DNA from: a virus
Taxonomy: Duplodnaviria; Caudoviricetes
Length of the DNA: 64,000 nt
Direction: 5' to 3' (one strand)
IMG/VR virus record: IMGVR_UViG_3300032038_000041
Coordinates: 30,412-94,411 of that record
Shown piece after piece: positions 1,505 through 60,331 of this stretch. The position numbers and the translations under genes are program-made. The notes under the pieces are model-generated. The model was given only the letters and a program-made list of their open reading frames with translations. It did no database searches and was not told the DNA's origin. The stretch's first letter is position 1. Each line of letters opens with the position of its first letter.

Positions 1505-4234
1505 ATGGAAGATATTAAACTTAGTAAAGATCTTGCTTCAAGGCTAAAAGAATCATATGAAGTTGCAAAAAAAGAAAACCTTAATATGGTTACATTAGAA
1601 AACGTACTCTATCAAGTATGCAACATCTATTGTTCTGGTAGTGGAGACGACGAATCATTAAAGAAATTCTTCTCTGATATGAGAGAACAGGATAGACAAA
1701 CTATATATAAAACAGCAGAACAAATCTTTGAAACTAATAAGGTTACTCTGCAAGTTCCTGATAAACTCAAACCAGATGAAGAAACTGGAATAACATTATC
1801 AAAACTTCTTAAAAAAGTTCTTACAAAAGCTAAAGACAGAAAACAAGCAATGTCTTTTGTAAGTGAAGATGAAACTCTCGAAGTTACAACTGATGTATTC
1901 TTTCTTGAGATTATTGATCATCCAGATTGTACTCTCCTCAACAGAACAAAAGTAAAAGTTAGTGATTTAGAAGATGCTATTAGATTTAATAGTTTTGCAG
2001 AGGCTCTTTCTAGTGGATTTGGAACTCTAAAAGAGAAAACTATTGAAACAAAAGATGAAAGCACAGGTTTGGATGAATTTTTAAAGAGTATCGGATTTAA
2101 ATCAGAAGCAAATAAAGTTGATATGAAAAAAGATGATGAAGAGTTTGATAAAGCAGGACAAAGCGAAGCAGTAAGCAGTAAAGCTGTAGACCCAAACTCC
2201 AAAACCCCATTCCTTGATCAATTTTCAGTTAATATGACTAAAGATGCCAAAGCAGGGAAGTTTGATCCTATGATTGGTCGACAGAATGAACTTGAACAGA
2301 TTATAAAGATTCTCTGTTGCCGTAAAAAGAATAATGTTCTTGCAATAGGACCTGGAGGTGTTGGTAAAAGTGCTATCGTTGAAGGTCTTTCACAGAGAAT
2401 TGTAACAAACCAAGTTCCACTTGAACTTCAAGGTAAGCGAATCTGTAGTCTTGATCTTAATGCTCTTGTCTCTGGTACTAAATATAGAGGCGAGTATGAA
2501 GAGAGATTGCAAGGAATTATCAAAGAAGTTTGTGATAATAAAGATATCATTGTTTATATTGACGAATTCCATAACTTAATAGGTAATGGTGGTGCTTCTG
2601 GATCTGGAGACGGTGCGAATATTCTTAAACCTTATCTAGCTCGTGGTGAGTTTCAATGTATTGGCTCAACCACCGATGATGAGTATAGAAAATATATTAA
2701 AGACGGAGCTTTAAAAAGACGTTTCCAGATTGTAAGAATTAATGAGCCTACGGAAGAAGAAACTGTTCAAATTCTTAAAGGATTAGCGCCTAAGTATGAA
2801 GAATATCATAAAGTTAAGTATCCCCTTGCCACACTTAAAGCATGTGCTGAGTGGTCTGGACGATATATAACTGAACGATTCTTCCCTGATAAAGCAATTG
2901 ATCTAATGGATACTGCAGGAGCTCAACTCAAACTCGAGAAAGTTCATGATACAACTGAAATCGATGAAGTAAAAACAGAGATTGAGAAAATAAAGAAAGA
3001 AAAACAAGATGCAGTTGAAGCACAAGACTTTGAACTAGCTGCACAGAAAAGAGATGAGCAGGTGAAACAACAAGAAAAACTGGAGTCTCTCTTAAAGGCT
3101 ATGGAAAAGTCAGAAAATAATAGAAAATTCTGGCCTGAAGTAACCGTAAATAATGTAGCTTATGTAATTTCTAATCTCAGCGGAGTACCTATTGATAGTA
3201 TCTACCATTCAGACTTTAATAAACTTAAGTCAATGAAGGACGAACTTAAGTCAATGGTAATTGGACAAGATGAGGCTATTAATGAGGTTTGTACTTCATT
3301 GCAGAGAAACTTCTTAGGATTTAGAGATGAAACTAAACCTATTGGAAGACTCTGCATGCTCGGTGTTAGTGGATGTGGTAAAACCTATCTGGCAGAACAA
3401 ATCGCTATTAAACTTTATGGATCTAAGGATGCTTTAATTAAAGTTAATATGGGTGAGTATGCAGGTGATAGTGACATTAACCTCAGTAAACTTATTGGTG
3501 CAGGACCAGGATTTATTGGATATGATGATAAACCAATCCTCGAAGAAGTAAGTGAGAAAAGACACTGTATCCTCTTGATTGATGAGGTTGAAAAATCTAG
3601 TAAAAAGGTATTTGATATTTTCTTGAACATCCTCGATAAGGGTGAATGTACACTTGGAAATGGAAAAGTAGTAGACTTTAGAGATACTATGATCCTCTTT
3701 ACAGGAAACCTTGGAACTAAGGAACTTGGAAAGGTAGGATCTGGTCTTGGATTTAATAAGGCTACTACAAAGGAAAGCCAACAAAAGCTAAATCAAGAGA
3801 CAGTAATGAAGGCAGTCAAGAAAACCTTTAGACCAGAATTCATTAATCGACTTGGAGGAATAATTATCTTCAATAACCTTGGAAAAGATGAACTGAAGAA
3901 AATATTCGTTCTTGAATTGGATAAACTAAAAACAAGAATGAAAAAACGTGGATATAATCTTAAAGTCACTAATGCAACTAGAGATATGATCATTGATAAG
4001 TGTGATCTTACTTATGGAGCTAGAGACCTTCAAAGAGAAATCCAGAAATATGTTGAAGAGGAAGTTTGTAATGCTATGCTCCTTGGAGATGAAGAATCTT
4101 TTAAAAGGATTACAGAAGCAAATGTAGACTACAAGGATGGAAAAGTGATTGTAAACTTCAAATATAAAAAACAATCCATACATACAACTCCTTCTCAACA
4201 GGAAACAAAAGAAGAGGAAGTTCAAAATGTTTAA
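1505..4234 (+). CDS. clpC: ClpC-type Clp/Hsp100 AAA+ ATPase
   Basis: Two AAA modules (GPGGVGKS/YIDEFH and GVSGCGKT/IDEVEK), KYRGEYEERL pore loop, UVR-like AVEAQDFELAAQKRD, FRPEFINRL, YGARDL. Confidence 0.92.
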   Translation: MEDIKLSKDLASRLKESYEVAKKENLNMVTLENVLYQVCNIYCSGSGDDESLKKFFSDMREQDRQTIYKTAEQIFETNKVTLQVPDKLKPDEETGITLSKLLKKVLTKAKDRKQAMSFVSEDETLEVTTDVFFLEIIDHPDCTLLNRTKVKVSDLEDAIRFNSFAEALSSGFGTLKEKTIETKDESTGLDEFLKSIGFKSEANKVDMKKDDEEFDKAGQSEAVSSKAVDPNSKTPFLDQFSVNMTKDAKAGKFDPMIGRQNELEQIIKILCCRKKNNVLAIGPGGVGKSAIVEGLSQRIVTNQVPLELQGKRICSLDLNALVSGTKYRGEYEERLQGIIKEVCDNKDIIVYIDEFHNLIGNGGASGSGDGANILKPYLARGEFQCIGSTTDDEYRKYIKDGALKRRFQIVRINEPTEEETVQILKGLAPKYEEYHKVKYPLATLKACAEWSGRYITERFFPDKAIDLMDTAGAQLKLEKVHDTTEIDEVKTEIEKIKKEKQDAVEAQDFELAAQKRDEQVKQQEKLESLLKAMEKSENNRKFWPEVTVNNVAYVISNLSGVPIDSIYHSDFNKLKSMKDELKSMVIGQDEAINEVCTSLQRNFLGFRDETKPIGRLCMLGVSGCGKTYLAEQIAIKLYGSKDALIKVNMGEYAGDSDINLSKLIGAGPGFIGYDDKPILEEVSEKRHCILLIDEVEKSSKKVFDIFLNILDKGECTLGNGKVVDFRDTMILFTGNLGTKELGKVGSGLGFNKATTKESQQKLNQETVMKAVKKTFRPEFINRLGGIIIFNNLGKDELKKIFVLELDKLKTRMKKRGYNLKVTNATRDMIIDKCDLTYGARDLQREIQKYVEEEVCNAMLLGDEESFKRITEANVDYKDGKVIVNFKYKKQSIHTTPSQQETKEEEVQNV

Positions 4235-4299
4235 TATTATAAAAGATTAGGCCTAAAAGCTTAGTCTTTTATTTTTTAACCTTGAAATTCTTATATGTG

Positions 4300-4465
4300 A
4301 GGAATTGATCTAATTGTTAGGTCGGTAAGGTGTTATGAAGACTAAGCATCTTACCTAGGAGAGATGTGTTCTGGAGGTAATTAAGGTGACTTTCCTTCGG
4401 GATTGAATTATCTCTGGAACTTCTCTCTGAAAATTCCTTAAAGAGGCATTATGCTTCTTTTTTAT
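4300..4465 (+). ncRNA. putative structured small RNA (four-way junction) with own promoter and terminator
   Basis: Promoter TCTTATATGTG at 4289-4299; closing stem AGGAATT/AATTCCT; three internal hairpins, one capped by C-UUCG-G; stem mismatches are G-U on the + strand; terminator AAGAGGCA..TGCTTCTTTTTT at 4441-4463. Confidence 0.6.
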
Positions 4466-4555
4466 TTCGTATAAGTAGTAATTGATATTACTACTACTTA
4501 TTATAGCCTATTTAGAAAAACGCACAAAAATCGAACAAAGAAAAAAGGGAGTCTT

Positions 4556-4906
4556 TTAACTCCCAAAGGCATGATTGCAAAATATATCTGCAAACGTAAG
4601 AATATTATTGATGGCTTCTCTATCAACCTCACGACGTGAATCTACCAACCTTTTATATGTTTGAATTCTAAGACCCAATTCAAAGGCTTTTAATTTTAAT
4701 TCCTTCTTTTTATACTTAGAGCCATCAGGTTTACAAAATTCACAAGGAAAACCATCTACCATAATCGTAGCCGTTCCACTATCAAATAATGCCTTTTGTT
4801 GCTCAAGCATAAAAATCTCTGCCTGACCAATCACAATATTCTTTTCTGTAAATGAATTGGCCGTTTCATATCTATACCTATAATACATTTCTCCAGTTTT
4901 CTTCAT
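4556..4906 (-). CDS. hypothetical protein
   Basis: ORF with likely ATG at 4906 (MKKTGEMYY) after an AT-rich leader. Confidence 0.6.
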   Translation of the reverse strand: MKKTGEMYYRYRYETANSFTEKNIVIGQAEIFMLEQQKALFDSGTATIMVDGFPCEFCKPDGSKYKKKELKLKAFELGLRIQTYKRLVDSRREVDREAINNILTFADIFCNHAFGS

Positions 4907-5039
4907 AATTCTACTTTTTATATTTTTTATTTTCATCTCTATTATTAAGGCTATCAAGCTTACGAAAGAGTTGAATAAAATTAATTATATTTGATACTAT
5001 AATATCATACATTCTATAATAAAGATAAGGAAATGTTTA

Positions 5040-5670
5040 ATTACGTATGGTTGATTGATGAATGACCGAAGGGAATGAAGATAAGCGACCATAACTATTC
5101 ATCATTAAAAACGTTTGGCCTACCCTAAATCTCTCACTTCGTTCAAGATTTGCCGCCCACACCGGCCAAACTAATAACATCTCCGCTTTCAGCGAATCTG
5201 TAGGTAATATATGACAATAAAAAATATAATATGAGTTAGGTGTAGTTTGTAATCGAGTTGAGGAGCGTAGCGACGAAAAATGATAACCAAGTGAAACGAG
5301 GGATGAAAACTACACCTATAATCTCTTTTTATCACATATGTTGTCCCCTATCCTTCGTCACTTCGTTCCTTGTCTAGCCGACCACTCGTTCCGCTTCGCT
5401 CCACTTCCACAACATATGTGTCTTTTTTAAATTGTCATATACTATATGGATTTCTTCAATTTAAAAACATAAATGAAGGGCTGGCGTGGTGGGCTAGGTT
5501 GGAATGGAGTGTAACGAAATGGAAAACTAGGGCAAGCCCTGAATACTTAACTTATACTTTGTTATAGGATGAGGGTTAGGTTTGGTTGGCGAAGGAACTG
5601 AATAACGAAGCCAGAATGAAATGATGGCGAAGTATTAAATGAAGTTACGGAGGGAAAACCCGAAGACTTT
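5040..5670. other. non-coding region of nested inverted repeats with GNA mini-hairpin motifs, upstream of helicase-like copy 1
   Basis: Stems GTTTGGCC/GGCCAAAC, AGGTGTAGTTT/AAACTACACCT, CACATATGTTGT/ACAACATATGTG, ATATGACAAT/ATTGTCATAT; loops contain GCGTAGC, GCGAAGC, ACGAAGT on alternating strands. Confidence 0.7.
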
Positions 5671-5686
5671 TTAATAAATACTAAAA

Positions 5687-5860
5687 TGCATTATTTTTTA
5701 AATTAACTATTCTTTTTAAAGGATAAACAATAAAATAACTAATAAAATAATGCAAATTTTATTAATACATCTTATAGTAAATTATAGTGTACTATTTTTT
5801 AAATTAACTATTCTTTTTAAAGGATAAACAATAAAATAACTAATAAAATAGTACAAATTT
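5687..5860. repeat. 101-bp-period direct repeat; each unit has a 58-bp identical core with compensatorily changed inverted-repeat ends
   Basis: Core 5692-5749 = 5793-5850; flanks TGCAT/ATGCA versus TGTAC/GTACA. Confidence 0.9.
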
Positions 5861-5978
5861 TGCGTCTAGGATAGTATTAAATCCTTAAAGATGTAGAACA
5901 ACTTAACAACAGAGAGAACAACTATTATATATTAAACAAAAACGACTCTTTTGTTAAGTTTTAATTTTAGAAATATTT

Positions 5979-8000
5979 ATGGAAAAACAAGTTATTGAAG
6001 TTCCTGCTGGTATTAGATATATATCAGATTGGAAAGAATTTAGAATGCTAGAATTTCCCCATATTATTGATAAGAAGATCCCAGGTTGTGGTTTTACTGA
6101 GTATTGTCTTAGAAATAATATGAACCTGATTCTTGTAAGCCCTCGCAAGATTCTTTTGGAGAACAAGGAAGAACAGCATAAGAAGGAGGGTAGGGAAATT
6201 CTTTATGTCAAGAGTGCTCTTAGTGTTGAAATGGCAATGGATAAAGATATTTCAAAGAGACCTAAAAGTGGAAAATCTAAGATAAAGTTAACTGATGAAG
6301 AGCTTAAAAAGAGGGCAAAATTAGCTAAAGAGGATTATGATAGAATAAGTGGTGAGATCCAAAATTATTGGGATACGTGTTTTAACAGGATTCCATGTAA
6401 GATTCTTGTAACATATGATTCTTATCGAAAAGTAAAAGATATTTTAATTAATAAGGGAATATTTCAAGAATTTTATACTGTAGTAGATGAATTTCAATCA
6501 ATTTTCGTAGACGCCAAATTCAAAAGTACTACCGAAATGGAATTTGTTACGGCATTACAAGGAGTAAGTAGACTTTGTTATGTTTCAGCTACACCGATGA
6601 TCGACTCTTACTTAGCTAAACTTGATGAATTTAAAGATCTACCTTATTTTGAACTAGATTGGGAGACTTTACAACCAGAACGTGTTAGTAAACCAGACTT
6701 AGAAGTAAAGATACTTAGATCTTTATCAAATTCAGCTAAAGCCATTATTAAAAGGTATAAAGACGGTAACTTTGACACTGCAACTATCATAGATCCACAA
6801 ACTATGCAACAGAAAATAATAGAATCAAGAGAAGCTATATTTTATGTTAATAGTGTTAATAACATTTGTAGTATTATTAGAAATTGTGGTCTTGATCCGG
6901 AAGAAGTAAATATTCTCTGTGCAAATACACCAGATAATACTAGAAGAATTAGAACAAAGCTTGGTAAAGGTTTTACAATTGGTAGAGTTCCGTTATATGA
7001 TGAGCCGAGAAAAATGTTTACCTTCTGTACAAGAACAGTATACTTAGGTGCAGACTTCTATAGTGATAATGCTAAAACTTATATCTTATCAGATGCTAAT
7101 ATTGATTCAATGGCAGTAGATATAACATTAGACCTTCCTCAAATTCTTGGAAGACAGAGACTTTCAATTAATCCTTGGAAGGATAAGGCTGATGTCTACG
7201 TAAAGGTCATAATGAAAAATAATCAGCAAGCTATTAATGAATTTAAAGAGATGATTGATAAGAAAATTGAAAAGACAACATCATTACTTGATTCTTGGAA
7301 GGATGTATCTACTGAGAAGAGAAGACAGGATCTTGCTGAAATTTATCAACAGATAGCTGAGATATTGAATTATAGGGATAACTATGTAGCTGTAAATAGT
7401 TACAATAGTGCATCTCTATTGCCAGTAATGAATGATCTTGCACTAATTTCAGAACAAAGAGCGTATGATGTGCAGCAATTAGATTACAAAGACCGTTTTA
7501 GTGTCTTTAATTCTATAGAAAATCAATTTAATATTGAATTAGAACGAGAAGTTAATAATTTCTTACTACAATTCAATGCATTAGAAGATGGATTTTTCTA
7601 TAAAATGAAATATGTATGTGAAACTTTACCTGGAAAGTCTATAGAAATTCAGACAAAAATCATCAATGAATTACCTAAGTCTTATCGAGAATTTTATATT
7701 ACACTTGGTCCTAATAGATTACAAGCATTAGGATATAATTTTCAATTAATAAAAAGTAGTATGGATCAAATCAATTTTGATATTAATACTTTGAATAATA
7801 CTATATACAATAACTTTCAGATTGGAGAAAAATGTAGTAAAGCTAGTATTAAAACAAAATTGCAAGATCTTTATAATCAAATTGGTTATAAAAAGACAGC
7901 TAAAGCATCGGACTTAGAGCAGTGGTTTGAATTAAAGTCTGTATTGTTGTCTGAAAATGGTAAAAGAATTCATGGTTTTGAGATAGTGAAGAAGAAATAA
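5979..8000 (+). CDS. SF2 (DExx-box) helicase-like protein, paralog 1
   Basis: IPGCGFT (Walker A without Lys), VVDEFQ (Walker B), VSATP (motif III), FCTRTVYLGADF (motif V), QILGRQR (motif VI). Confidence 0.8.
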   Translation: MEKQVIEVPAGIRYISDWKEFRMLEFPHIIDKKIPGCGFTEYCLRNNMNLILVSPRKILLENKEEQHKKEGREILYVKSALSVEMAMDKDISKRPKSGKSKIKLTDEELKKRAKLAKEDYDRISGEIQNYWDTCFNRIPCKILVTYDSYRKVKDILINKGIFQEFYTVVDEFQSIFVDAKFKSTTEMEFVTALQGVSRLCYVSATPMIDSYLAKLDEFKDLPYFELDWETLQPERVSKPDLEVKILRSLSNSAKAIIKRYKDGNFDTATIIDPQTMQQKIIESREAIFYVNSVNNICSIIRNCGLDPEEVNILCANTPDNTRRIRTKLGKGFTIGRVPLYDEPRKMFTFCTRTVYLGADFYSDNAKTYILSDANIDSMAVDITLDLPQILGRQRLSINPWKDKADVYVKVIMKNNQQAINEFKEMIDKKIEKTTSLLDSWKDVSTEKRRQDLAEIYQQIAEILNYRDNYVAVNSYNSASLLPVMNDLALISEQRAYDVQQLDYKDRFSVFNSIENQFNIELEREVNNFLLQFNALEDGFFYKMKYVCETLPGKSIEIQTKIINELPKSYREFYITLGPNRLQALGYNFQLIKSSMDQINFDINTLNNTIYNNFQIGEKCSKASIKTKLQDLYNQIGYKKTAKASDLEQWFELKSVLLSENGKRIHGFEIVKKK

Positions 8001-8120
8001 AAAGAGATGGAGAAGAACAAACCTTCTCTTTCTCTTATTTTGCTTTTAAGAGAGGTTTTTACCCTTATATATGGTGGGGATATAGTGTCCCCAAGGAATA
8101 ATAAAATATTAAATTATAAA

Positions 8121-10495
8121 ATGATAAAGAATAATATTAATAATCAAGAAATTAGTGATGATGAAATAAGATTTTTACCACCACGTGATGCATGTAGGCT
8201 TCGTCCATCGATGTATATTGGAAATACAGGTGGAGAGTATGGAGCATCAACGATTTTCCGTGAAATTCTAGATAATTCTATGGATGTTATTTCGGAAGGT
8301 TATGGTGATACTATCTTAGCCAGTGTAAATTTTAATGGTTTTTGTTTTGTGGCTGATAATGGAAAGGGTTTACCTATTACTATGTCAGTTGATAGACCAG
8401 ATATTACAGCGGCTGAACTTAGTATTTCAGAGTTTCACAGTGGTAGTAAATTTAAAGGTACGGAGAACTTAGCACGTATTGGTATTAATGGTGTTGGTTC
8501 TAGTGCAACTAATTTTGTTTCAAAAGAGTACTGGATTCTTAGTAGGATTACACAGGACAATTATGATAAGTCTATTCCAGCAGTAAAAGAATGTTGGGAG
8601 AAGGCTGGTCCGAGAAGTAAAAAAGATTTATTTTATGTCTTATCAATGAAAGAAGGACTAAAGGCAGATGAAGGTGCTGGAAAATTAAGAGATATTGAGA
8701 AGAAGATTTTTAAAGGTCTTAAACAGTATGTCTCAATTCCAGGAGGTCAAAGTACTATAGTTCTTTTTAAGCCTGATCCTGCTATTTTTGAAGATCCAAG
8801 AGCAGAAATGCCGGTAACCAACTTACAATACTTTCTTCTTATTCAAGAGAAGTTTTATAAGAGGCAGGTTAATGTTATAGTAGATGGAGTTTCGCTTAGG
8901 AGTACATTTAGTCCTTATAAGTTTGAAATTACAAAGACTATTATTCCAGCTAATACTTCTTATAACAAGCAGGTTGGTGTATATATAACTTTTGAAGCAG
9001 ACGATAAGTTACAGAATGCCGGATCTTTTGGTAGTGTTAACGGTCTTAGTTGTAATGAAGGTGCTCATATAAATTTATTTAAGAATTTATATAAATCGGC
9101 TCTTCGTGATCAGTATAAGATTAAACATGATTGTCTTTTGAATGGTCTTAGGTTTTGTATAATTATTCTGGCTAATGAGTGTCAGTTTAATTCTCAGACA
9201 AAGGAAAATCTAAAACAGATAACAAAAGTCAAACCAACAGATTTTGCACCTGTAGTAAAAGAGATTGAGAAAATCTTTAAGAAGAATCCTGAGTATTGGG
9301 ACCTTCATGTTCAGAAACTAGATCAATTAGCAGAGAGCATGAAGAGTATTGGTGCTGCTGATAAAGCACAAAAGATGATGGATTCTAGTAGTGGTGTTAA
9401 TCAATATAGAAACAAGGCTGATCTTCCAAAAGGATTTGCAGACGCCACAAGTAAAGATCGATGGAATTGTGAGCTCTTCCTATGTGAAGGATTATCAGCT
9501 GCGGGGTCTCTTGTTACAGGGAGAAAAGATACTAAGACTCATGCAGTAAGCGGTTTAAGAGGGAAAATATTAAACGTAACTGATAAGAGTGTTGATAGGG
9601 CTCTTGAATCAAAGGTAATTAATGATATTTTTAATATTATTGGATTAGGTCTTGATGTAAACTGGGTTGGAAAAGATGCAAAGACCTATGAAGAAGCACA
9701 AGCAATAATAGAGAAACGTAGTAGATACGGAAAGATTGTTATTGCGACGGATTAGAATTATCTGAGTCCGTGAGATTTAGAAATAATTCTCAAAGAATCG
9801 TATTACAGCGGGGAACTCCTGTTAGGTAAAAGGTACTAGGAATAGTAACAATCCTTTTAATAGGGACAATCCGCGATATTAAATAAAATACATAATTTAA
9901 TACCTCAACGACTATCCCGAAAGGGAGTAGGGTAAGCAAGTCTATAATGGCTACTCGAAAGATACGACATCTGAACAGGTTATGCTGAAGATGAAAATAT
10001 AGTCTGATCTGCATAGAGATATGTAGGAGTTCATAAGAGAACCAGGAATTAGTGACGCAATTCTTGAACAAAATGGCTGATCCTGATGGTGATGCAATTT
10101 TTAATGAGATTGTATACTTATTCAGTAAATTCGCACGCTTCTTATTAGATCATCATATGGTATATCGTGCTATGTCTCCTTTGTTTAGAGGCATTAGTAA
10201 AACAACGGGTCAACTTACATATTATTACCCAGATGATACGTTTGATTCCTTCGGTATGCCGATTGATCTAGACACTAAACATCATTTTGATCGCTGGAAA
10301 GGATTAGGTAGCCTAACGCCCGAAACAGGCGAGGTATATGATTCCTTTTACAATCCCCTTACTAGGCGGTTAGTTTTAGTTACACCGGATGGGATTGATT
10401 ATTCCAGAGGTCTTAATGAAAATATTGAAAATAGAAAGAAATTACTTTTTGATAAAGGAATTCTTAGCAATCCTTATAACTTTACAGATTTATAA
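8121..10495 (+). CDS. type II DNA topoisomerase, GyrB/ParE-like subunit (exons 8121-9752 and 10076-10495; 683 aa spliced)
   Basis: RLRPSMYIG, EILDNSMD, DNGKGLP, GINGVG, EGLSA, LRGKILNV; splicing restores TOPRIM motif IATD|ADPDG; promoter at 8063-8073 favours ATG 8121 over 8007. Confidence 0.9.
9753..10075 (+). mobile_element. group I intron, 323 nt, no ORF
   Basis: 5' exon CGGAU pairs with IGS GUCCG; R element CTCAACGACTA, S element AATATAGTC; terminal G; in-frame exon join. Confidence 0.9.
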
Positions 10496-30186: not shown

Positions 30187-32340
30187 ATGGCATCAATTAA
30201 AAAAAGAAATGGCTTTATAGAAGATTTTGATCTTAAAAAGGTTCGAAAAGGTATTAGAAATGCAATGAAGACTGGTAGTGGTGAATATTTTCCACGCCTA
30301 GTAGATGCAATTACTAATGAACTTAAAGATCTACTAAAAGATAAAGAAAATGATGTAATCACTGGTTCTGATATTGATAAATTTATTATAAAACGCCTTC
30401 GGGACTACGGTCAAGCATCAACTGCAACAAATTATGAGAGATATAAAACTCTTAAGTATTATCAAAAGTCGAGGGGCATAGTTGATAATGAAATTGATGG
30501 ATTAATTTCTGGAACAAATGAGGCAGTTATTGATGAAAATTCAAACAAAAATTCACATCTAATCTCTACACAAAGAGACCTAATTGCCGGAATTGAATCT
30601 AGAAATTATGTAGAAAGAAAAATAATGCCGTTGAATCTACTCCAGGCACATCAAGAGGGATTAATTCATATTCATGATACAGATTATATGATTCACCCAG
30701 GAATCTTTAATTGCCAGTTAATTAATCTTAAAGATATGCTTCAAAATGGAACTGCAATTAATGGCAAAAAAATAGAAAAACCAAAGTCAATTCAAACCGC
30801 TGCAACTATTGCAACACAAATTAGTCTTCAAGTAGCTAATGGTCAATATGGAGGACAGACATTTAGTCTATCACATCTTGCTCCATTCGTACGAATATCT
30901 TATAATAAATATGTTGATAAGCTTACTGAGGAATATACTAAACTGGGAAAAGAACCTGACTTAGATATTATTAAAGCTCAAGCTGAAAAACTTACTAGAG
31001 ATGAGGTAAAAAGTGCCGTACAAACTATCCAATTTCAAGAGAATACATTTTCTTCTAGTAATGGCCAAACTCCATTTGTATCAATCTTTATGTATATAAG
31101 TGAAGAACCAGAATATGAGAAAGAGACTGCTATGCTCATAGAAGAAACTATTCGTCTAAGATATCTCGGAATGAAAAACAAGGATGGTGTGTATGTTACC
31201 CCTGCTTTCCCAAAGTTACTCTACGTTCTCGATGAAAACAATGTCCCAAAAGATTCAAAGTATAGATATCTTACGGACTTGGCTGTTAAAACTGCTGCAA
31301 AGAGAATGAATCCTGACTTTATCTCCGCTAAGATAATGAAGAAAAACTATGAAGGAAATGTATTTCCATGTATGGGATGTAGATCCTTCTTAGCACCTTG
31401 GAAAGATGAAGAGGGGAATTATAAATTCTATGGAAGGTTTAATCGTGGTGTCGTAACTATAAATCTTGTAGATGTAGGTTTGTCAGCAAGAAAAGATGAA
31501 AGTAAGTTTTGGGAAATCTTAGATGAACGTCTTAACTTGTGTAAAGAAGCACTAATCCTCAGAACTAAACTTATCAAAGGAGCAACATCTGATGTATCAC
31601 CTATTCATTGGCAAGATGGATCCGTTGCTCGACTAAAATCAGGTGAAAAGATTGATAAGTATCTTGAAAATGGATATAGTAGCATTTCTCTTGGCTTTAT
31701 AGGACTACATGAAATGTGTATGGCAATGTTTGATGAGAGTCTTACATCTGAAAAAGGAAGCGCATTTGCATTAAAAGTCCTGCAATACCTAGCAGATACC
31801 TGTACTAAGTGGAAGACTGAAGAATATCTTAATGGAGCTTCCTTATATGCAACACCATCAGAATCATTATGTTATAAGTTCGCATGTAAAACCGCTAAAA
31901 GGTTTGGTGTTATAAAAGGCATAACTGATAAAGATTGGTTCACAAATAGTTATCATGTAACTCCGACAGAAGAAATTGATGCATTCTCAAAACTAAAATT
32001 TGAAGCTCAATATCAAAATATCTCTAAGGGTGGTGCTGTTAGCTATGTTGAAGTTCCTAATATGGAAGATAACTTAGAAGCACTTGCACAGGTAATTGAT
32101 TTTATGTATGATAATATTCAATATGCTGAGATAAATACTAGATGTGGTGATGTTTGCTCTACTTGTGGATATCAGGGCGAAATTACTGCAGATAAAGATG
32201 GCGTATGGACTTGTCCTAATTGTGGCGAGACAAATAGAGATAAACTAACAGTTGTTCGTCGTACTTGTGGATATATAGGTTCAACGTTTTGGAATAAAGG
32301 AAAGACAGAAGAAATTAATGAACGAGTATATCATCTATAA
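30187..32340 (+). CDS. nrdD: anaerobic (class III) ribonucleoside-triphosphate reductase
   Basis: ATP cone, HIHD, QYGGQT, MGCRSFL, TNSYH, C-terminal Zn CxxC pairs, RRTCGY glycyl radical site. Confidence 0.97.
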   Translation: MASIKKRNGFIEDFDLKKVRKGIRNAMKTGSGEYFPRLVDAITNELKDLLKDKENDVITGSDIDKFIIKRLRDYGQASTATNYERYKTLKYYQKSRGIVDNEIDGLISGTNEAVIDENSNKNSHLISTQRDLIAGIESRNYVERKIMPLNLLQAHQEGLIHIHDTDYMIHPGIFNCQLINLKDMLQNGTAINGKKIEKPKSIQTAATIATQISLQVANGQYGGQTFSLSHLAPFVRISYNKYVDKLTEEYTKLGKEPDLDIIKAQAEKLTRDEVKSAVQTIQFQENTFSSSNGQTPFVSIFMYISEEPEYEKETAMLIEETIRLRYLGMKNKDGVYVTPAFPKLLYVLDENNVPKDSKYRYLTDLAVKTAAKRMNPDFISAKIMKKNYEGNVFPCMGCRSFLAPWKDEEGNYKFYGRFNRGVVTINLVDVGLSARKDESKFWEILDERLNLCKEALILRTKLIKGATSDVSPIHWQDGSVARLKSGEKIDKYLENGYSSISLGFIGLHEMCMAMFDESLTSEKGSAFALKVLQYLADTCTKWKTEEYLNGASLYATPSESLCYKFACKTAKRFGVIKGITDKDWFTNSYHVTPTEEIDAFSKLKFEAQYQNISKGGAVSYVEVPNMEDNLEALAQVIDFMYDNIQYAEINTRCGDVCSTCGYQGEITADKDGVWTCPNCGETNRDKLTVVRRTCGYIGSTFWNKGKTEEINERVYHL

Positions 32341-33212: not shown

Positions 33213-33491
33213 ATGAAAAAGTCAAAAAGAACAAAAAGTAATGACCTGGCTAAAATCTTAAGAATGATTAGTCGGGATGAAGAACTTGAAAGAAATGACG
33301 GTAAATGGGTAGCTATGAACCGTGTATTCAAAGACAAGAAAAAGTACGATAGAAAAAAGATGAAAAAGGACTTAAGGGATGACCTTGGGTCCTTATCTTT
33401 TTTACAAAAATTAAAGGGAGAACTTAATCTCCCTTCTTTTTTATTATTTCGAAACCATGAATTCTTTTACCATTTTCTCTATACTGAATAG
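33213..33491 (+). CDS. small basic protein, candidate ArfA/BrfA-like ribosome rescue factor made from a non-stop mRNA
   Basis: SRDEE..G...RVFKDKKKYDRKK; intrinsic terminator at 33366-33403 lies inside the ORF before any stop codon. Confidence 0.55.
   Translation: MKKSKRTKSNDLAKILRMISRDEELERNDGKWVAMNRVFKDKKKYDRKKMKKDLRDDLGSLSFLQKLKGELNLPSFLLFRNHEFFYHFLYTE
33366..33403 (+). terminator. intrinsic terminator inside ORF 33213-33491
   Basis: AAGGACTTAAGG-GATGA-CCTTGGGTCCTT followed by ATCTTTTTT. Confidence 0.75.
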
Positions 33492-35463
33492 CTTTGACTT
33501 CAAACCACTGATTAATATCTTCGGCTTTGGCTGTTTTATTATTCCCTACCTGATTATAAATATTTTGAATACTAGCCTTTAAAGATATCTTACTAATCCT
33601 ATCACCTATATTAAATTTTGAATAAATTAGAGAATTAATATTATCCTTATTAGATTGTTCAATGATATTTTTCTGATATTCAGCCTCAATCTTGGCCTTA
33701 GTATAACTTCCAGCTTTTATTCTTTCTACTCCTAAGGTTATAATATAGTTCTTATATTCCATTGGGATAGAGTTAATTAATAATTCAAAGCCAGACTCTT
33801 CAAGTATATCCTTTTGATCGCAGATAAATTTCATCCTATCCCTAAATGTTTTATACTTATAATTAAAATCATTTAAGATCTTGTCAAATTTATCCTTATT
33901 TGTTGATACATTGAAATCTGATAAATTACTAAAGACAGCAAATCTATCCTTATAGTCATACTCTTGAATTTCAAAAGTTCGCATTTCAGATATCATCATA
34001 AGATCATTTTTAACCGGTACTGCCATAGATCCCGCGTGATGATTAACGGCTACAAAATCCGTCTTATAGTTTGCATTTTTAGCATCTCTTTCATACTTCT
34101 CTACTAAGGCATCTTTATCCTCATCGGGTAATAATGTATAAGCCTTTAGTAGACTCTCTGTTTTTCTAAGTTTAATCTCAAGATAGTTTTTAAACTCTTC
34201 TTTACTTTTATCACCTTTATATTTTAAAGTTACATATAAATCAGCACTATTCTTCCATGGGTTTTCTATTAATCTCTGTCTACCTAAAATCTGTGGTAGG
34301 TCTAAGGAAATATCTACTGATAAGCAGTCTATATTAGCGTTACTAAAGATATAAGATTTAGCACAGGTACTATAAAAATCAGCACCTAAATATACCGTCC
34401 TAGTGCAAAAGGTAAAGGTTTTATGTGGTTCTCCTTTCTTTGGAACTCTACCGATAAATGGTCCATCTGATTTCTTAAGACCAAAGGCTCTCTGAATAGT
34501 GGTTTCATTTGTCGGAGTCTTAGCTATAAGAATATTACACTGATCCGGTGTAAGCTTATTTAACTTTATGGCCTTTGCAATATCTTTAACGGAATTGACA
34601 TAAAACACAGCCTCTTTACTTTCAATCTCTTTAAAATTGCCGTGTTCATCTTTATAGCGATATGTATCATAATTTCCTGTTGTATATTTTAAGATTACTT
34701 TAGCAATTTCAGCTTGAATAGTATTTCTCTTACCACAATACTTCACATTAAGATTTGGCTTCATTATCCTTCCAGGCTGTTTAGAATTCCAGTCTAGTTC
34801 AAAGTAAGGTAAGTCTTTAAATTCATCTAACATCTCTAGATATTCTTTTATCATTGGAGTTGCACTAACATATACAACTCTATTTAATCCCTGAAGATGA
34901 CCTACAAATTCTAATTCAGAACTTGACTTGAATTTAGCGTCAGTGAAGATGCTCTGAAATTCATCAATAACTACATAAAACTTCTCTATATCTTCCCCTA
35001 ATGCTTCTTTAACATGACGAAAAGAATCATACGTTACTAGGATTTTACAAGGTTTTCTTTCCTGAAATGGACTAGGTTGACATGAGTTCCAATAATCTAC
35101 TACTCCTTGTTTTAATTTCATAATTCTAAGCTTTTTATCTTCCTCAGAAAGTTCTTTAAACCCTAAAGATTTCAAATCTGGCCTAGAACTTGAAAAATCC
35201 TTTTCAAAATTAATGCCTCTTTCAACTTCATTTCTCACATAATAAACGTTACCCTTATGTTGATCCTCTTTATTCTCTAAGAGTATCTTACGTGGTGAAC
35301 ATAGTATAATATTCATATTATTTCTAATACAATATTCAGTATACCCGCAACCAGTTAAAACTTTGTTTAGTATGTGAGGAAATTGATAATGTTCAAGAGA
35401 GTATTCTTTCCAATTACTGATATATCTTATACCAGTTGGTACTTTAATTGATTTAATTTCCAT
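33424..35463 (-). CDS. SF2 (DExx-box) helicase-like protein, paralog 2
   Basis: LTGCGYT, VIDEFQ, VSATP, FCTRTVYLGADF, QILGRQR; colinear with 5979-8000. Confidence 0.8.
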   Translation of the reverse strand: MEIKSIKVPTGIRYISNWKEYSLEHYQFPHILNKVLTGCGYTEYCIRNNMNIILCSPRKILLENKEDQHKGNVYYVRNEVERGINFEKDFSSSRPDLKSLGFKELSEEDKKLRIMKLKQGVVDYWNSCQPSPFQERKPCKILVTYDSFRHVKEALGEDIEKFYVVIDEFQSIFTDAKFKSSSELEFVGHLQGLNRVVYVSATPMIKEYLEMLDEFKDLPYFELDWNSKQPGRIMKPNLNVKYCGKRNTIQAEIAKVILKYTTGNYDTYRYKDEHGNFKEIESKEAVFYVNSVKDIAKAIKLNKLTPDQCNILIAKTPTNETTIQRAFGLKKSDGPFIGRVPKKGEPHKTFTFCTRTVYLGADFYSTCAKSYIFSNANIDCLSVDISLDLPQILGRQRLIENPWKNSADLYVTLKYKGDKSKEEFKNYLEIKLRKTESLLKAYTLLPDEDKDALVEKYERDAKNANYKTDFVAVNHHAGSMAVPVKNDLMMISEMRTFEIQEYDYKDRFAVFSNLSDFNVSTNKDKFDKILNDFNYKYKTFRDRMKFICDQKDILEESGFELLINSIPMEYKNYIITLGVERIKAGSYTKAKIEAEYQKNIIEQSNKDNINSLIYSKFNIGDRISKISLKASIQNIYNQVGNNKTAKAEDINQWFEVKAIQYRENGKRIHGFEIIKKKGD

Positions 35464-35569
35464 ATTTATTAATTGTTTAAAATTATAGAATAGAACTCTA
35501 CTATCTTCTTATATTATTTTCTAGTAATTGTTCTATTCCTTCCAAACATAAGGAATTGAGAGTTTCTAA

Positions 35570-35930
35570 AGAGCAAAATGTCACCATTTTTTGGAAATTA
35601 TTTTGTATCTACCTTATAAGTCTCATTTTGGTTAAAATTGAATAAAAAATAGTGACACCTATTCTCACAGATCTTACTTCTACCTTATTCCCTCACTCCA
35701 CTTCGTTCGGTCAATGATAAAGTTTCAGGAGTCTTATTCAATAGCGTAGCTGCCAAAGCGTTAAGCGAAGAGGGTTAAACGAGGGACGGACTTTGTCCCG
35801 AGTACCGATGAGTAGCTTTGGAATGCTTCTCTTACATAGAGCCGGGGTGGGAGCGTTAAGTGAAATGAGGAATGAAGTGACGAATGGAACAAGCGAGTGG
35901 CGGATGGAATCCGGGCAGGCCGGGATTTCT
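35570..35930. other. inverted repeat plus GNA mini-hairpin region upstream of helicase-like copy 2
   Basis: TGTCACCATTTTTT..AAAAAATAGTGACA inverted repeat (35579-35657); motifs CACTTCGTTC, AGCGTAGCT, GGAATGAAGTGACGAATGG, CGAGTGG shared with 5040-5670. Confidence 0.7.
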
Positions 35931-36100
35931 TTTCTATTATATGTCAGATCCTCTCAAGTCGAAGAAAAAAAAGAAAGAGGATTATGTTTTCCCCTTTCCT
36001 TTTTCTTTATTCTTTTTAAGTTGTTCTTTAAACCATGGAAGATATGCCTGTTTAAACACCACCTTACCTGCTACTACGCAGACTTGTCTAATAAACTCTT

Positions 36101-36412
36101 TCATGCTGTCCCTCCTTCTTTTTCAAGTTCATTTATTAGATTACGAGCAAAGTCATCATTAATCTTAGCCTCTTCTATTTTTTCGAGGGTCAGAATTAAC
36201 TTCTTTTTTCCTTCTTTACTCATGCCTTTAAACTCTTTAAGGATATCTTGCTTACTAGAGTAATATTTTGCTGACTCTAGTTCTGCATCTCTAAATTCAG
36301 GGAATAGGATTAGTTTAAAATTATAAGCAATTGTTTCTCCCAATGTTTCACCTAATGCTCCGGCTGCAAATGCTAAGCCTAAGCTAAATACTTTTACTAT
36401 AAATGTTCCCAT
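36101..36412 (-). CDS. hypothetical protein with hydrophobic N-terminus
   Basis: 103-aa ORF, AT-rich leader. Confidence 0.65.
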   Translation of the reverse strand: MGTFIVKVFSLGLAFAAGALGETLGETIAYNFKLILFPEFRDAELESAKYYSSKQDILKEFKGMSKEGKKKLILTLEKIEEAKINDDFARNLINELEKEGGTA

Positions 36413-57839: not shown

Positions 57840-58997
57840 ATGATAAAAGAAAATAAATGGATTAATGGAGCAATACCTGCTCTCTTCATTCACTCCTGTA
57901 TTGGAAGTGTTTATTGTTGGTCTCTATTAAAAGGGGACATATCACAGGCTATTGGATGTTCTGTTGGAAGTATAGAATTCGCTTTTTCATTAGCAATTTT
58001 CTTCCTTGGAATGTCAGCAGCTTTTGGTGGACGATTTGTAGAAAGGAATGTAAAGAAAGCTTCACTTCTAAGTACCTTCTGTTTTATTACAGGCCTACTT
58101 GGAACTATCTTAGCAATACAATTAGGAAGTATTCCTTTGTTATTCCTATTCTATGGTGCAATTATGGGTATAGGTCTTGGAATAGGATACCTCAGCCCTG
58201 TAAAAACCCTAATGCTCTGGTTTAAAGAACATAAAGGATTGGCTACCGGAATAGCAATTTCTGGCTTTGGCCTAAGTAAAGTCCTATTCTCACCACTAAT
58301 TGAATGGTGTAATCAGGCGCATGGAGTACAAATGACATTACTCTTAATGGCTGGAATTTCTGCTATTTTCATGAGTATAGCAACTTGGGTAATAAAGAAA
58401 CCTAATGGATGGGTAGAAAAACAAAGTCCATTCTCATTAAAAGAATCATGGCACATTATAACAAACTCTACCTACCTACGAATCTGGTTTATCTTTTACC
58501 TAAATATTACTTGTGGTCTAGCATTAATCAGCTTTGAGAAAACACTGGCACTTGGAGTTGGTATTACGTGGATTGCAATACTATCATCCCTTACAGCAGC
58601 ATTCAATACATTAGGACGATTCGGATATAGTACCTGTTCAGATTACTTACACAGGAAAATTTGGATATATGTAATTATATTCCTAACATCACTGCTAGTT
58701 TGTATTGGAGGAACATCATTATCAATAATAGGTACAGTATTGCTCTTGTGCATCGTAAACTTAGGCTATGGGGGAGGATTCAGTACATTGCCAACTCTCT
58801 TGCAATCTAGGTTTGGTATGGAAAAAATCAGTACTATTCATGGATTTGCATTATCTGCTTGGGCTTGGGCTGGACTTAGTGGAAATCAACTCTCATCATT
58901 CGTTCTAGAGAGATGGGATACTACAATATTACTGTGTATCTTAAGCGGATTGTATGGATTAGCCCTTATTACTAGTATGTCATTGTTAAAAAAGTAA
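57840..58997 (+). CDS. MFS transporter, OFA (oxalate/formate antiporter-like) family
   Basis: Multi-TM; GSVYCWS, GLGIGYLSPVKTLMLWF..KGLATGIAISGFG, YGGGF. Confidence 0.85.
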   Translation: MIKENKWINGAIPALFIHSCIGSVYCWSLLKGDISQAIGCSVGSIEFAFSLAIFFLGMSAAFGGRFVERNVKKASLLSTFCFITGLLGTILAIQLGSIPLLFLFYGAIMGIGLGIGYLSPVKTLMLWFKEHKGLATGIAISGFGLSKVLFSPLIEWCNQAHGVQMTLLLMAGISAIFMSIATWVIKKPNGWVEKQSPFSLKESWHIITNSTYLRIWFIFYLNITCGLALISFEKTLALGVGITWIAILSSLTAAFNTLGRFGYSTCSDYLHRKIWIYVIIFLTSLLVCIGGTSLSIIGTVLLLCIVNLGYGGGFSTLPTLLQSRFGMEKISTIHGFALSAWAWAGLSGNQLSSFVLERWDTTILLCILSGLYGLALITSMSLLKK

Positions 58998-59107
58998 AAT
59001 AAGAGAAAGAGAAGATTTATTCTTCTCCATCTCTTTTTATTTCTTCCTCACTATCTCAAAACCAGGAATTTGTTTGTCTAGTATGTGTGGAAAATAGCAC
59101 AAATTTT
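58996..59107 (-). pseudogene. internally deleted relic of the helicase-like cassette (copy 3)
   Basis: Minus strand reads FPHILDKQIPG-FEIVRKK*, the helicase N-terminal motif fused to its C-terminus; 58996-59064 matches 7973-8041 at 66/69 nt. Confidence 0.85.
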
Positions 59108-59416: not shown

Positions 59417-60331
59417 TTAGTCTCTAACAAACGTAACTTTTTTCTCAAAAATAGTTTTATATAGAGTTTGTACTCCTTTTGATATATAATCCTCTTTCAT
59501 CAACTTCTTACTGCTAGTGCTTAGATTTCTAGGAGAGATATAACCATTTCTTATTATATCTTTTTCTATTAATTCTTCGAATACCATTAAGCTATTTTCT
59601 AAGTTTTCATGCTGTAAGTAGAATTCTAATCCAGTTTCAGCAAAATCAGGAATAAATTCAGTTCTTGAACTACACGATTCAAAATCTAGTTTTAATTTTG
59701 CTTTTGCTTTAGCCCTCTCTTTTCTATTTACAACTCTTGTTTTCCACATACCACCACCATAAGACTCATACCTAAAAGTTTTTATTCCATACTTAATTTC
59801 TAAGTATTTGTCTCTAGCTTTATCCAAAAGTTCTCTTTGTTCGTGATGTTTTCCATCTACTTCAAAATTGATACTTTTTTCTTTTACATAAGCATCTAGT
59901 GAAATGAAATTTTTATCCATTTCATCTATTGCACCCTTAAAGAAATTAGCTTTTAAAGTTTTAGATTCTTGTCTTAATTCTTTTTCTGATAGAATACCTT
60001 TATATGCTTTTATTATACAATTTTGCCATAGATTAATATCTTCAATTGGAAAGATTATTTCTCTACATATAGGAATTCCAAGGGAAGTAGCATCTTTTTC
60101 AAATTGTTCAAAATACCAAGATTCTCCCATTTTTAAAAGTGAATTTTCGAAGTATTCTCCCTTCTTATTCTTACCTTGTCTTTTAGAAGCAATATTAATT
60201 GTATAATTTCTATTTCGGTTACTGCATATCCAGGTTGGAAATAAGAATTCAGGACAACCATCACTAGCAGTCATATAATTTGATGATCTAATATATTTTA
60301 ATAATAACTCATGTAACTTTTCTTTTGTCAT
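59417..60331 (-). CDS. putative free-standing PD-(D/E)xK / DUF559-like endonuclease
   Basis: SLDAY...INFEVDGKHH...DKARDKYL...GIKTFR. Confidence 0.6.
   Translation of the reverse strand: MTKEKLHELLLKYIRSSNYMTASDGCPEFLFPTWICSNRNRNYTINIASKRQGKNKKGEYFENSLLKMGESWYFEQFEKDATSLGIPICREIIFPIEDINLWQNCIIKAYKGILSEKELRQESKTLKANFFKGAIDEMDKNFISLDAYVKEKSINFEVDGKHHEQRELLDKARDKYLEIKYGIKTFRYESYGGGMWKTRVVNRKERAKAKAKLKLDFESCSSRTEFIPDFAETGLEFYLQHENLENSLMVFEELIEKDIIRNGYISPRNLSTSSKKLMKEDYISKGVQTLYKTIFEKKVTFVRD

Follow-up and report, generated by a model that had tools for sequence, protein, structure and literature searches.

Introduction

Replication initiators that join a motor to a winged helix are represented by phage P4 alpha, the NrS-1 primase-helicase, and SaPI Rep, in which the gene lies beside its own origin and specificity resides in a variable DNA-binding module. 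Their motors are hexameric helicases of the superfamily 3 or 4 type (SF3/SF4), one per replicon. Multiple chromosomal origins located beside their own initiator genes, which are thought to have been acquired by capture or duplication, are found in Sulfolobus and haloarchaea, where the initiators are AAA+ proteins (Orc1/Cdc6 or WhiP). To our knowledge, multiple origin/initiator pairs within one replicon have not been established for any phage, and the start and organization of replication in phages of several hundred kb are largely unknown. Here, a 64,000-nt stretch (the window; positions 30,412 to 94,411) of the Caudoviricetes record IMGVR_UViG_3300032038_000041 was analyzed, which carries two full copies and one relic of a cassette composed of long non-coding DNA, a putative promoter, and a gene for a helicase-like protein with a superfamily 2 (SF2) fold.

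The exchange of genes between phage genomes has precedents of its own. For the free-standing homing endonucleases of the T4 type (Seg, Mob), GIY-YIG-type nuclease genes beside conserved phage genes lead to local gene conversion, and in the PeSL shuffling cassettes, repeated regulatory stretches serve as recombination joints. The existence and the repetition of the cassette were confirmed, and it belongs to a large family that lacks a Pfam model and has a striking layout along the genome. Its copies are read in this work, tentatively and with rather less than even confidence, as pairs of a putative origin and its initiator that are reshuffled by recombination and gene conversion.

Copy Number and Spacing in Related Phages

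The core home of the family is a clade of jumbo phages with genomes of ~330-400 kb. Whole-record searches revealed seven full copies in G001 (367 kb, 93% complete), nine copies, one of which was split, in G003:C18 (376 kb), five in G004:C1 (371 kb), four in 218 kb of G005, and three in 119 kb of G006. In a set of 80 loci, nearly all copies were preceded by 400-1300 nt of DNA free of open reading frames (ORFs), and these leaders were AT-rich beside the gene, with GC-rich patches 200-600 nt out. Counted genome-wide in relatives, the cassette thus occurs 5-9 times in genomes of ~370 kb, nearly always with a long leader, which extends the repetition originally predicted from the window alone. Among the G001 paralogs, the last ~400 nt upstream of the gene were homologous, with 70-90% nucleotide identity. 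Single-copy distant homologs were detected in Acinetobacter phage Phab24 and Psychrobacter phage D'Alembert, located at divergent switch points and accompanied by a 0.9-1.35 kb non-coding leader.

The gaps between neighboring copies ranged from 38 to 65 kb in G001, from 26 to 60 kb in G003, and from 57 to 85 kb in G004; the probability of so large a minimum gap for random points was 4e-4, 5e-4, and 3e-3, respectively. Since this spacing is more even than chance, random insertion is hard to reconcile with it, and a role tied to the chromosome position is indicated. The GC skew of each gene was analyzed by regression with two predictors, the orientation of the gene and the side on which the nearest copy lies, and significance was estimated by circular shifts. 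The residual GC skew to the right of the copies was +0.016 in G001 and +0.018 in G004 (values reached by 1% and 0.4% of circular shifts, respectively), and its positive sign in both genomes is the direction expected for leading strands.

The near-complete jumbo phages JAGAYY010000025.1 (376 kb) and CASEGV010000001.1 (371 kb), which contain loci L097-L110, were found in public bins labelled as Bacilli and Mycoplasmatota metagenome-assembled genomes. In both bins, all helicase-like matches were confined to a single contig of ~370 kb.

Protein Family, Fold, and Motifs

At 90% clustering, the family comprises more than 4800 matches, and at 50% identity it forms 1723 clusters; no precomputed Pfam domain is attached to any of them. 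Neither paralog of the window had a match in Pfam at E <= 0.1, PDB sequence searches with the protein and with its profile gave no match, and NCBIfam and PHROGs yielded no meaningful match for the family. No description of the family or its spacing was found in literature searches. Single-protein scans of viral contigs with the copy 1 protein (P0001) and with the 385-aa protein flanking the relic revealed no relatives, and Helicase_C gave one weak match, in G001.

The AlphaFold2 model (predicted local distance difference test, pLDDT, 79.5) contains two tandem RecA-like domains, which substantiates the SF2-like fold assumed in the original prediction. The core was matched to eIF4A and DEAH helicases with Z 18.6 and a root-mean-square deviation (rmsd) of 4.2 over 311-316 aligned residues, a generic SF2 result. 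The C-terminal 254 residues, modelled separately (pLDDT 90), were helical with a winged helix at the end; the last 66 residues matched the RFX DNA-binding domain (Z 6.1, rmsd 2.8), and the winged helix matched the C-terminal domain of the phage NrS-1 primase-helicase (Z 5.1). As modelled, an SF2 core followed by a C-terminal winged helix would be the layout of helicase-type initiators, and it was counted in favor of the origin/initiator reading. The analogy to herpesvirus UL9, drawn earlier from the sequence, holds for the SF2 core plus a presumed C-terminal DNA-binding part, and origin-binding proteins of this kind, including the giant-virus "replication origin-binding proteins", were among the Foldseek matches in the viral library; it does not reach the family level, as neither paralog had a Pfam match to Herpes_ori_bp (PF02399) and only the generic fold is shared.

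Motif I reads GCGFT in copy 1 and GCGYT in copy 2, and the Walker A lysine is absent, as had been noticed. In copy 1, the motifs are K32-x3-GCGFT (I), DEFQ (II), SATP (III), and QILGRQR (VI). The missing lysine proved to be true of every aligned member, 23%-identical homologs included, all of which have motif I in the form K-x3-G-C/V-G-x-T. The residues Lys32, D170, E171, A204, T205, P206, Q388, G391, R392, and R394 are invariant across the family. The invariance of motifs II, III, and VI and of Lys32 suggests an active site that is constrained rather than decayed, and a nucleoside triphosphatase (NTPase) activity independent of the Walker lysine may be predicted from these motifs. The C-terminal module was the most divergent part of the paralogs, with 40-60% identity vs. 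56-73% for the core.

Homologs of ~940 aa (L166:8001-10823, L164, L165, and L167) were found to carry a C-terminal BT4734-like_N domain (PF08800, similar to archaeo-eukaryotic primases; E 1e-15 to 1e-17), one of them with an additional weak, sub-threshold PriCT_1 match (E 0.0012). PF08800 was not found in G000 or G001. The L166 fusion gene follows a ClpB-like gene, like copy 1, and lies near genes for thymidylate synthase, dihydrofolate reductase (DHFR), and a Toprim protein.

Cassette Structure in the Window

The features of the window are listed in Table 1. Two paralogs of ~675 aa, about half identical, had been predicted; the encoded proteins have 673 and 679 aa and share 47% identity over their full length. 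The layout proposed for the cassette (mini-hairpins, AT-rich inverted repeat, upstream box, gene, and terminator) was present at both full copies, and, as expected of an origin module, the gene adjoins non-coding DNA with an AT-rich stretch and repeats or palindromes.

Table 1. Coordinates of the cassette features and of element E2 in the window.
Feature	Position	Strand	Description
ORF-free region before copy 1	4958-5978	.	1021 nt; largest clearly non-coding gap of the window
GC-enriched, hairpin-rich part, copy 1	5040-5660	.	GNA mini-hairpins enriched
Tandem duplication, copy 1 leader	5663-5861	+	98-nt units, 101-nt spacing, 85% identical; contains inverted repeat and box
ATTTTGCG box, copy 1, putative promoter element	5857-5864	+	~115 nt upstream of ATG
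Leader hairpin, copy 1	5900-5960	+	15-nt arms, 93% complementary
Copy 1 gene, P0001	5979-8000	+	673 aa; SF2-fold core (residues 1-410), helical domain, C-terminal winged helix (modelled)
Terminator hairpin and T-run, copy 1	8004-8047	+	
Terminator hairpin (GGGAGA...TCTCCC and T-run), copy 2	33385-33423 (approximate)	-	
Copy 2 gene, P0002	33424-35463	-	679 aa
Copy 2 leader, box, and inverted repeat	35464-35723	-	ATTTTGCT box 35572-35579; AT-rich repeat 35579-35592/35644-35657
E2	35724-35928	+	205 nt, GC-rich, sharp borders; + strand ends in hairpin and U-run
Relic of third copy	58990-59107	-	118 nt; codons ~27-36 fused to last 8 codons and terminator

The ORF-free stretch upstream of copy 2 measures ~640 nt. 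GNA mini-hairpins with a 2-bp G/C stem were more frequent than expected in both GC-rich parts, with 7 observed vs. 1.6 expected at 5040-5660 (p 0.002) and 4 vs. 1.1 at 35660-35990 (p 0.026). The former part contains two GC-rich units inside perfect 12-nt inverted repeats (5237-5248/5307-5318 and 5333-5344/5409-5420), and the motifs of its left half are pyrimidine-rich, with opposing purine-rich motifs in the right half. Each unit of the tandem duplication includes an AT-rich inverted repeat (5687-5705/5736-5754 and 5788-5806/5837-5855); roughly half of 5629-5827 was gapped in the alignment with the close relative, consistent with one unit there. The AT-rich inverted repeat directly abuts the ATTTTGC(G/T) box in both copies. 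As a word, ATTTTGCK was not enriched in the window (9 vs. 7.3 expected), and the part of the box claim that stands is its position, which is filled in copy 2 and in all seven G001 paralogs; the weight of the box rests on this conservation among paralogs. The leader hairpin was also present in both full copies. The upstream regions of copies 1 and 2 gave no alignment beyond one 16-nt motif.

The nominal ATG (8007) of the ORF for the topoisomerase II large subunit falls inside the copy 1 terminator hairpin. The family match of this ORF starts at residue 38 and the gene call in the relative is 38 residues shorter, so that the true start is probably located downstream (region 8007-8121).

The perfect 3'-terminal block reported for the two genes was exact: positions 7953-7978 are the reverse complement of 33452-33477, and these 26 nt form the longest exact word common to both genes, the runners-up being 16 and 14 nt long. 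The third, deleted copy expected at ~59,000 was recovered as a short relic (Table 1). In a BLASTN search of the cassette against the window, 58990-59070(-) matched 7967-8047 with 94% identity over 81 nt, covering the last codons and the terminator; 5' of this match, 21 nt agreed at 19 of 21 positions with codons 28-34 of copy 2. The relic translates as FPHILDKQIPG joined to FEIVRKK and a stop codon. The near-repeat ATTCNTGGTT was found near both ends of the full gene, and the 21-nt and 81-nt matches identify the relic as an internal deletion at this microhomology.

The proposed placement of all three copies at strand-switch points was upheld in part. Copy 2 and the relic are located at convergent points, at the ends of gene blocks, whereas copy 1 opposes just a single small divergent ORF. 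A 304-aa ORF (59417-60331, minus strand) directly upstream of the relic had a weak match to DUF559 (Vsr-like endonuclease, E 0.013).

Nuclease Partners and Cassette Exchange

Eight T5orf172 genes encoding proteins of ~320-370 aa were detected in the related phages, 5-140 nt downstream of copies; one of them is located at 130986-132026 of G001. In whole-genome searches, they matched only the C-terminal part of the helicase-like protein. The partner proteins begin with MIYLI...KIGYTE, and seven of nine match Pfam T5orf172 (GIY-YIG superfamily; best E 3.7e-6). Their last ~157 residues were aligned to the C-terminal module of the helicase-like protein with an hhalign probability of 100% and E 3.5e-52, and in five to six of the eight cases (one near-tie), the module was closest to that of the adjacent copy (65-80%, compared with 35-55% for the majority of the remaining copies of that genome). 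In addition, behind another G001 copy lies a short ORF that consists of T5orf172 alone, and the D'Alembert homolog is directly followed by a gene for an HNH endonuclease.

A similar architecture is known in the ICP1 nuclease Odn (gp88), in which a T5orf172 nuclease domain is fused to a copied origin-binding domain of PLE RepA and which cuts the origin at iterons (PMC8263062). By analogy with Odn, the C-terminal module would be a sequence-reading domain, with the nuclease aimed at the sites of the helicase-like protein, and the nuclease probably targets cassette sites. The partners would be the second example in nature, after Odn, of a T5orf172 nuclease that has taken over the module of a different protein, here with a presumed DNA-reading role.

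The closest relative was contig k119_964720; the proteins encoded by copy 1 and by its ortholog there share 94% identity, and the flanking gene order is unchanged. At the copy 2 site, the downstream flank was 95-100% identical (mostly 98-99%) up to ~33411; identity amounted to 50-70% through ~33.45-35.74 kb, that is, over the coding sequence, leader, and promoter, and returned to 95-98% at 35745-35944. The copy 2 protein of the relative (P0284) is 63% identical. This low-identity block within near-identical flanks indicates that the whole promoter-plus-gene cassette was exchanged between genomes; the joints are the conserved 3' end of the gene and the GC-rich element E2. In copy 1, the last ~400 nt (7626-8022) were 79-87% identical to the relative, with surroundings of 96-100%, a pattern that resembles a conversion tract or rapid evolution in the winged-helix part. 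In the relative, two E2 copies enclose a further copy of the gene in split form (129 + 530 aa) together with six genes (L112:513-2434 and 2483-6541); the corresponding site of the window has a single E2 and other upstream genes.

In a FastTree phylogeny of 31 family members, shown without support values, the G001 and G004 paralogs grouped by genome and not by apparent position, within two ancient clades. In a tblastx comparison of short (3-kb) flanks, two pairs of downstream flanks were matched, G1_L087 with C_L109 and G1_L091 with C_L106. Clustering by genome despite matching downstream flanks suggests concerted evolution.

The nuclease genes and the exchange tracts could alternatively belong to a homing or gene-conversion cassette without a replication role, that is, to a multi-copy family of some other function (recombination, repair, or anti-defense) whose copies are dispersed, homogenized, and exchanged through the adjacent free-standing T5orf172 homing nucleases. 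The shared C-terminal module would then have arisen as a by-product when a nuclease gene entered the helicase gene at its 3' end and retained the tail that it displaced, for which the mobile endonuclease ORFs of fungal mitochondria provide a model. Nuclease genes directly downstream of copies and with the module closest to that of the adjacent copy, the HNH gene right after the D'Alembert homolog, whole cassettes swapped between near-identical genomes, and paralogs clustering by genome over apparent position would all fit this explanation, as would the relic and the split copies; the 26-nt 3' block and the raised 3' divergence likewise resemble conversion tracts. It leaves unexplained the even spacing, the primase fusions, and the long leader, which is conserved even in single-copy phages without a nuclease, and most copies, both of those in the window included, have no nuclease partner. 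This alternative is regarded as unlikely on the whole, though with appreciable weight.

GC-Rich Element E2

Element E2 was 94-98% identical in the close relative, which has two copies of it. In G006, one copy was 95.6% and a second 88% identical, and only the helicase-like genes of this phage could otherwise be aligned with the window (64-82%). The E2 sites elsewhere are L011:5294-5496, L133:4005-4203, and L112:6593-6794 and 1-125. Two or more copies of the element were present per genome, none of them farther than ~300 nt from a helicase-like gene, and they lay on either side of it: upstream and antisense of copy 2, one G006 copy, and two of the copies carried by the relative, and downstream of a different G006 copy. 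The window holds just one E2.

An Rfam search of 35400-36200 at E <= 1 returned chance miRNA-like rows only, and RNA folding of E2 was no better than that of shuffled sequences on both strands (z 0.08 and 1.05). An nhmmer profile of E2 did not find the copy 1 upstream region, a 16-nt motif alone being in common. The matches of the 16-mer TTCGTCACTTCRTTCC in viral contigs were mostly due to chance, except for G006 and one unrelated phage group. A 24-nt stretch around the 16-nt motif, GAAATGAGGAAYGAAGTGACGAA (window 35857-35884), recurs in the unrelated viral contigs L117, L125, L129, L138, L140, and L149, where it is located ~45 nt before the gene start, beside a GC-rich hairpin and TAnnTTTG-type promoter words.

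Host Phage and Genomic Context

The source record (94.4 kb) was estimated by CheckV to be 25% complete, which corresponds to a fragment of a ~370 kb phage; the GC content of the window is ~32%. Public runs containing the stretch were bovine, sheep, and other animal gut metagenomes. The surrounding genes encode a ClpB-like ATPase, topoisomerase II subunits, SbcCD-like proteins, RNA polymerase (RNAP) beta and beta'-like subunits, and NrdDG. No tRNA or tmRNA genes were found in the window, and Rfam at the gathering threshold gave no match over its whole length. Metatranscriptome contigs from four ruminant-gut runs mapped to the copy 1 gene and to a small gene at 4525-4920, leaving 5022-5934 uncovered; such contigs cannot prove the absence or the ends of transcripts, and these libraries may contain DNA.

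Discussion

Circumstantial support for origin/initiator pairs is provided by the protein architecture and motifs, primase fusions, long leaders, even spacing, skew, divergent C-terminal module, nuclease partners, and recombination among copies. To this extent, the cognate origin-initiator pairs suggested in the original prediction are favored, by the spacing, the modelled winged helix, the primase fusions, the nuclease module, and the skew in two of three genomes. Each cassette is a three-part module: non-coding DNA rich in hairpins, a putative promoter of its own, and the gene, whose NTPase-like product has an SF2 fold and, at the C terminus, a variable module modelled as a winged helix. Through this module, the protein would most likely recognize particular sites within or close to the non-coding region of its cassette and, once bound, could act as a replication initiator or an origin-opening motor. 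The jumbo phage genome would be replicated from several evenly spaced origins, each with a paralogous initiator; homologous recombination and gene conversion would keep the copies alike, replace some, and destroy some. In the relatives, the downstream T5orf172 nuclease would cut at or near the same sites and so drive conversion. Extended to the clade, the model implies that ~370 kb gut and rumen jumbo phages replicate from 5-9 regularly spaced origins, each fired by its own lysine-less SF2-type paralog, with module-copying nucleases driving origin/initiator exchange within and between phages; this broader proposal is possible but doubtful.

Several observations speak against the origin/initiator reading. 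The residual GC skew in G003 was +0.003 and not significant, the GC-skew signal as such is small and suggestive only, and the signals of G001 and G004 are not independent because the genomes are related. Neither the window nor the 94-kb record contains a T5orf172 partner. No clear iterons were found in the leaders, only short repeats and inverted repeats, and the two leaders of the window have nothing in common but the 16-nt motif and the arrangement of box and inverted repeat. E2 was located upstream of some copies and downstream of another one, so the GC-rich parts may have no functional tie to the gene. The match of the modelled winged-helix fold is modest (Z ~6), and the absence of the Walker lysine could mean that the protein is no motor at all. 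A weak, sub-threshold DnaB_C match was obtained in the G004 phage contig, and such a gene in one related phage points to a separate replicative helicase that may exist.

A transcription factor for the phage multisubunit RNAP, with the SF2 motor and winged helix opening or activating promoters and the paralogs specific to a gene block or to a time of infection, is an improbable alternative. It would agree with the RNAP beta and beta'-like subunits encoded close to copy 2 and with the position of the G001 copies, four of seven being the first gene of a same-strand block and three of seven lying in the first quarter. An RNAP-linked SF2 helicase of the Swi2/Snf2-Rad25 type also has a precedent in phiKZ-like jumbo phages (PMC7824862); neither paralog, however, matches the Swi2/Snf2-Rad25 family, and copy 2 and the relic are located at block ends rather than starts. 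The primase fusion and the Odn-like partner indicate replication or DNA cutting, and even spacing is unexpected for factors acting in trans.

The other possibility raised originally, a self-propagating helicase-based element, holds in a weak sense only: copies duplicate, decay, and exchange as units. As a classical transposon with defined ends, the cassette would account for the dispersed copies, the lineage-specific expansions in the tree, the relic, and the copy number varying among relatives. No transposase, integrase, or HUH motif was found in the paralogs or the neighboring ORFs scanned, in agreement with the first reading of the sequence; shared terminal repeats are absent, and the homology of the window copies runs from 7 nt before the ATG to the stop codon. 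The one site that could be compared with the relative is a replacement rather than a presence/absence difference, the downstream flanks of two copies agree between G001 and G004, and the copies are spaced much more regularly than insertion at random would produce. This makes a classical transposon very improbable.

It is barely credible that the GC-rich regions are VIPR-like small guide RNA arrays with the helicase-like protein as an accessory enzyme, although helicase accessory genes are known from some VIPR types (bioRxiv 10.64898/2026.04.26.720920) and E2 terminates in a hairpin and U-run, as no RAMP-like match was found in the neighboring ORFs scanned and neither strand of E2 folded better than shuffled sequences. 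VIPR guide arrays were also rejected as a candidate on repeat number: vrRNAs carry 9-16 GGYNN repeats, and the whole window has one run of three.

Comparison with Known Systems

Like the herpesvirus UL9 and giant-virus origin-binding proteins, the helicase-like protein is modelled with an SF2 core of two RecA domains followed by a C-terminal DNA-binding part, and UL9-type proteins act on palindromic, AT-rich origins. Unlike the present family, UL9 retains the usual lysine in Walker A and its gene is single-copy, and the structural match here is to SF2 in general. P4 alpha, NrS-1, and SaPI Rep share with this family the combination of a motor with a winged helix as well as primase fusions; the putative motor here is of SF2 type and the gene is multi-copy.

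ICP1 Odn and the partners described here both combine a T5orf172 domain with a module, DNA-binding in Odn and presumably so here, that was taken from a different protein and agrees with the cognate allele. For Odn, the donor is the initiator of a satellite, PLE RepA, the module is N-terminal, and a rival element is attacked. In the jumbo phages, by contrast, the nuclease and helicase-like genes are neighbors in the same phage, the module is C-terminal, and cleavage is a predicted activity only. In T4, unlike here, the gene adjacent to the nuclease is not multi-copy and has no domain in common with the nuclease. A parallel to the proposed genome organization is offered by Sulfolobus and haloarchaea, with several dispersed origin/initiator pairs per replicon, an arrangement that is here proposed for a phage; the family copies at regularly spaced genome points are testable candidates for phage origins and initiators.

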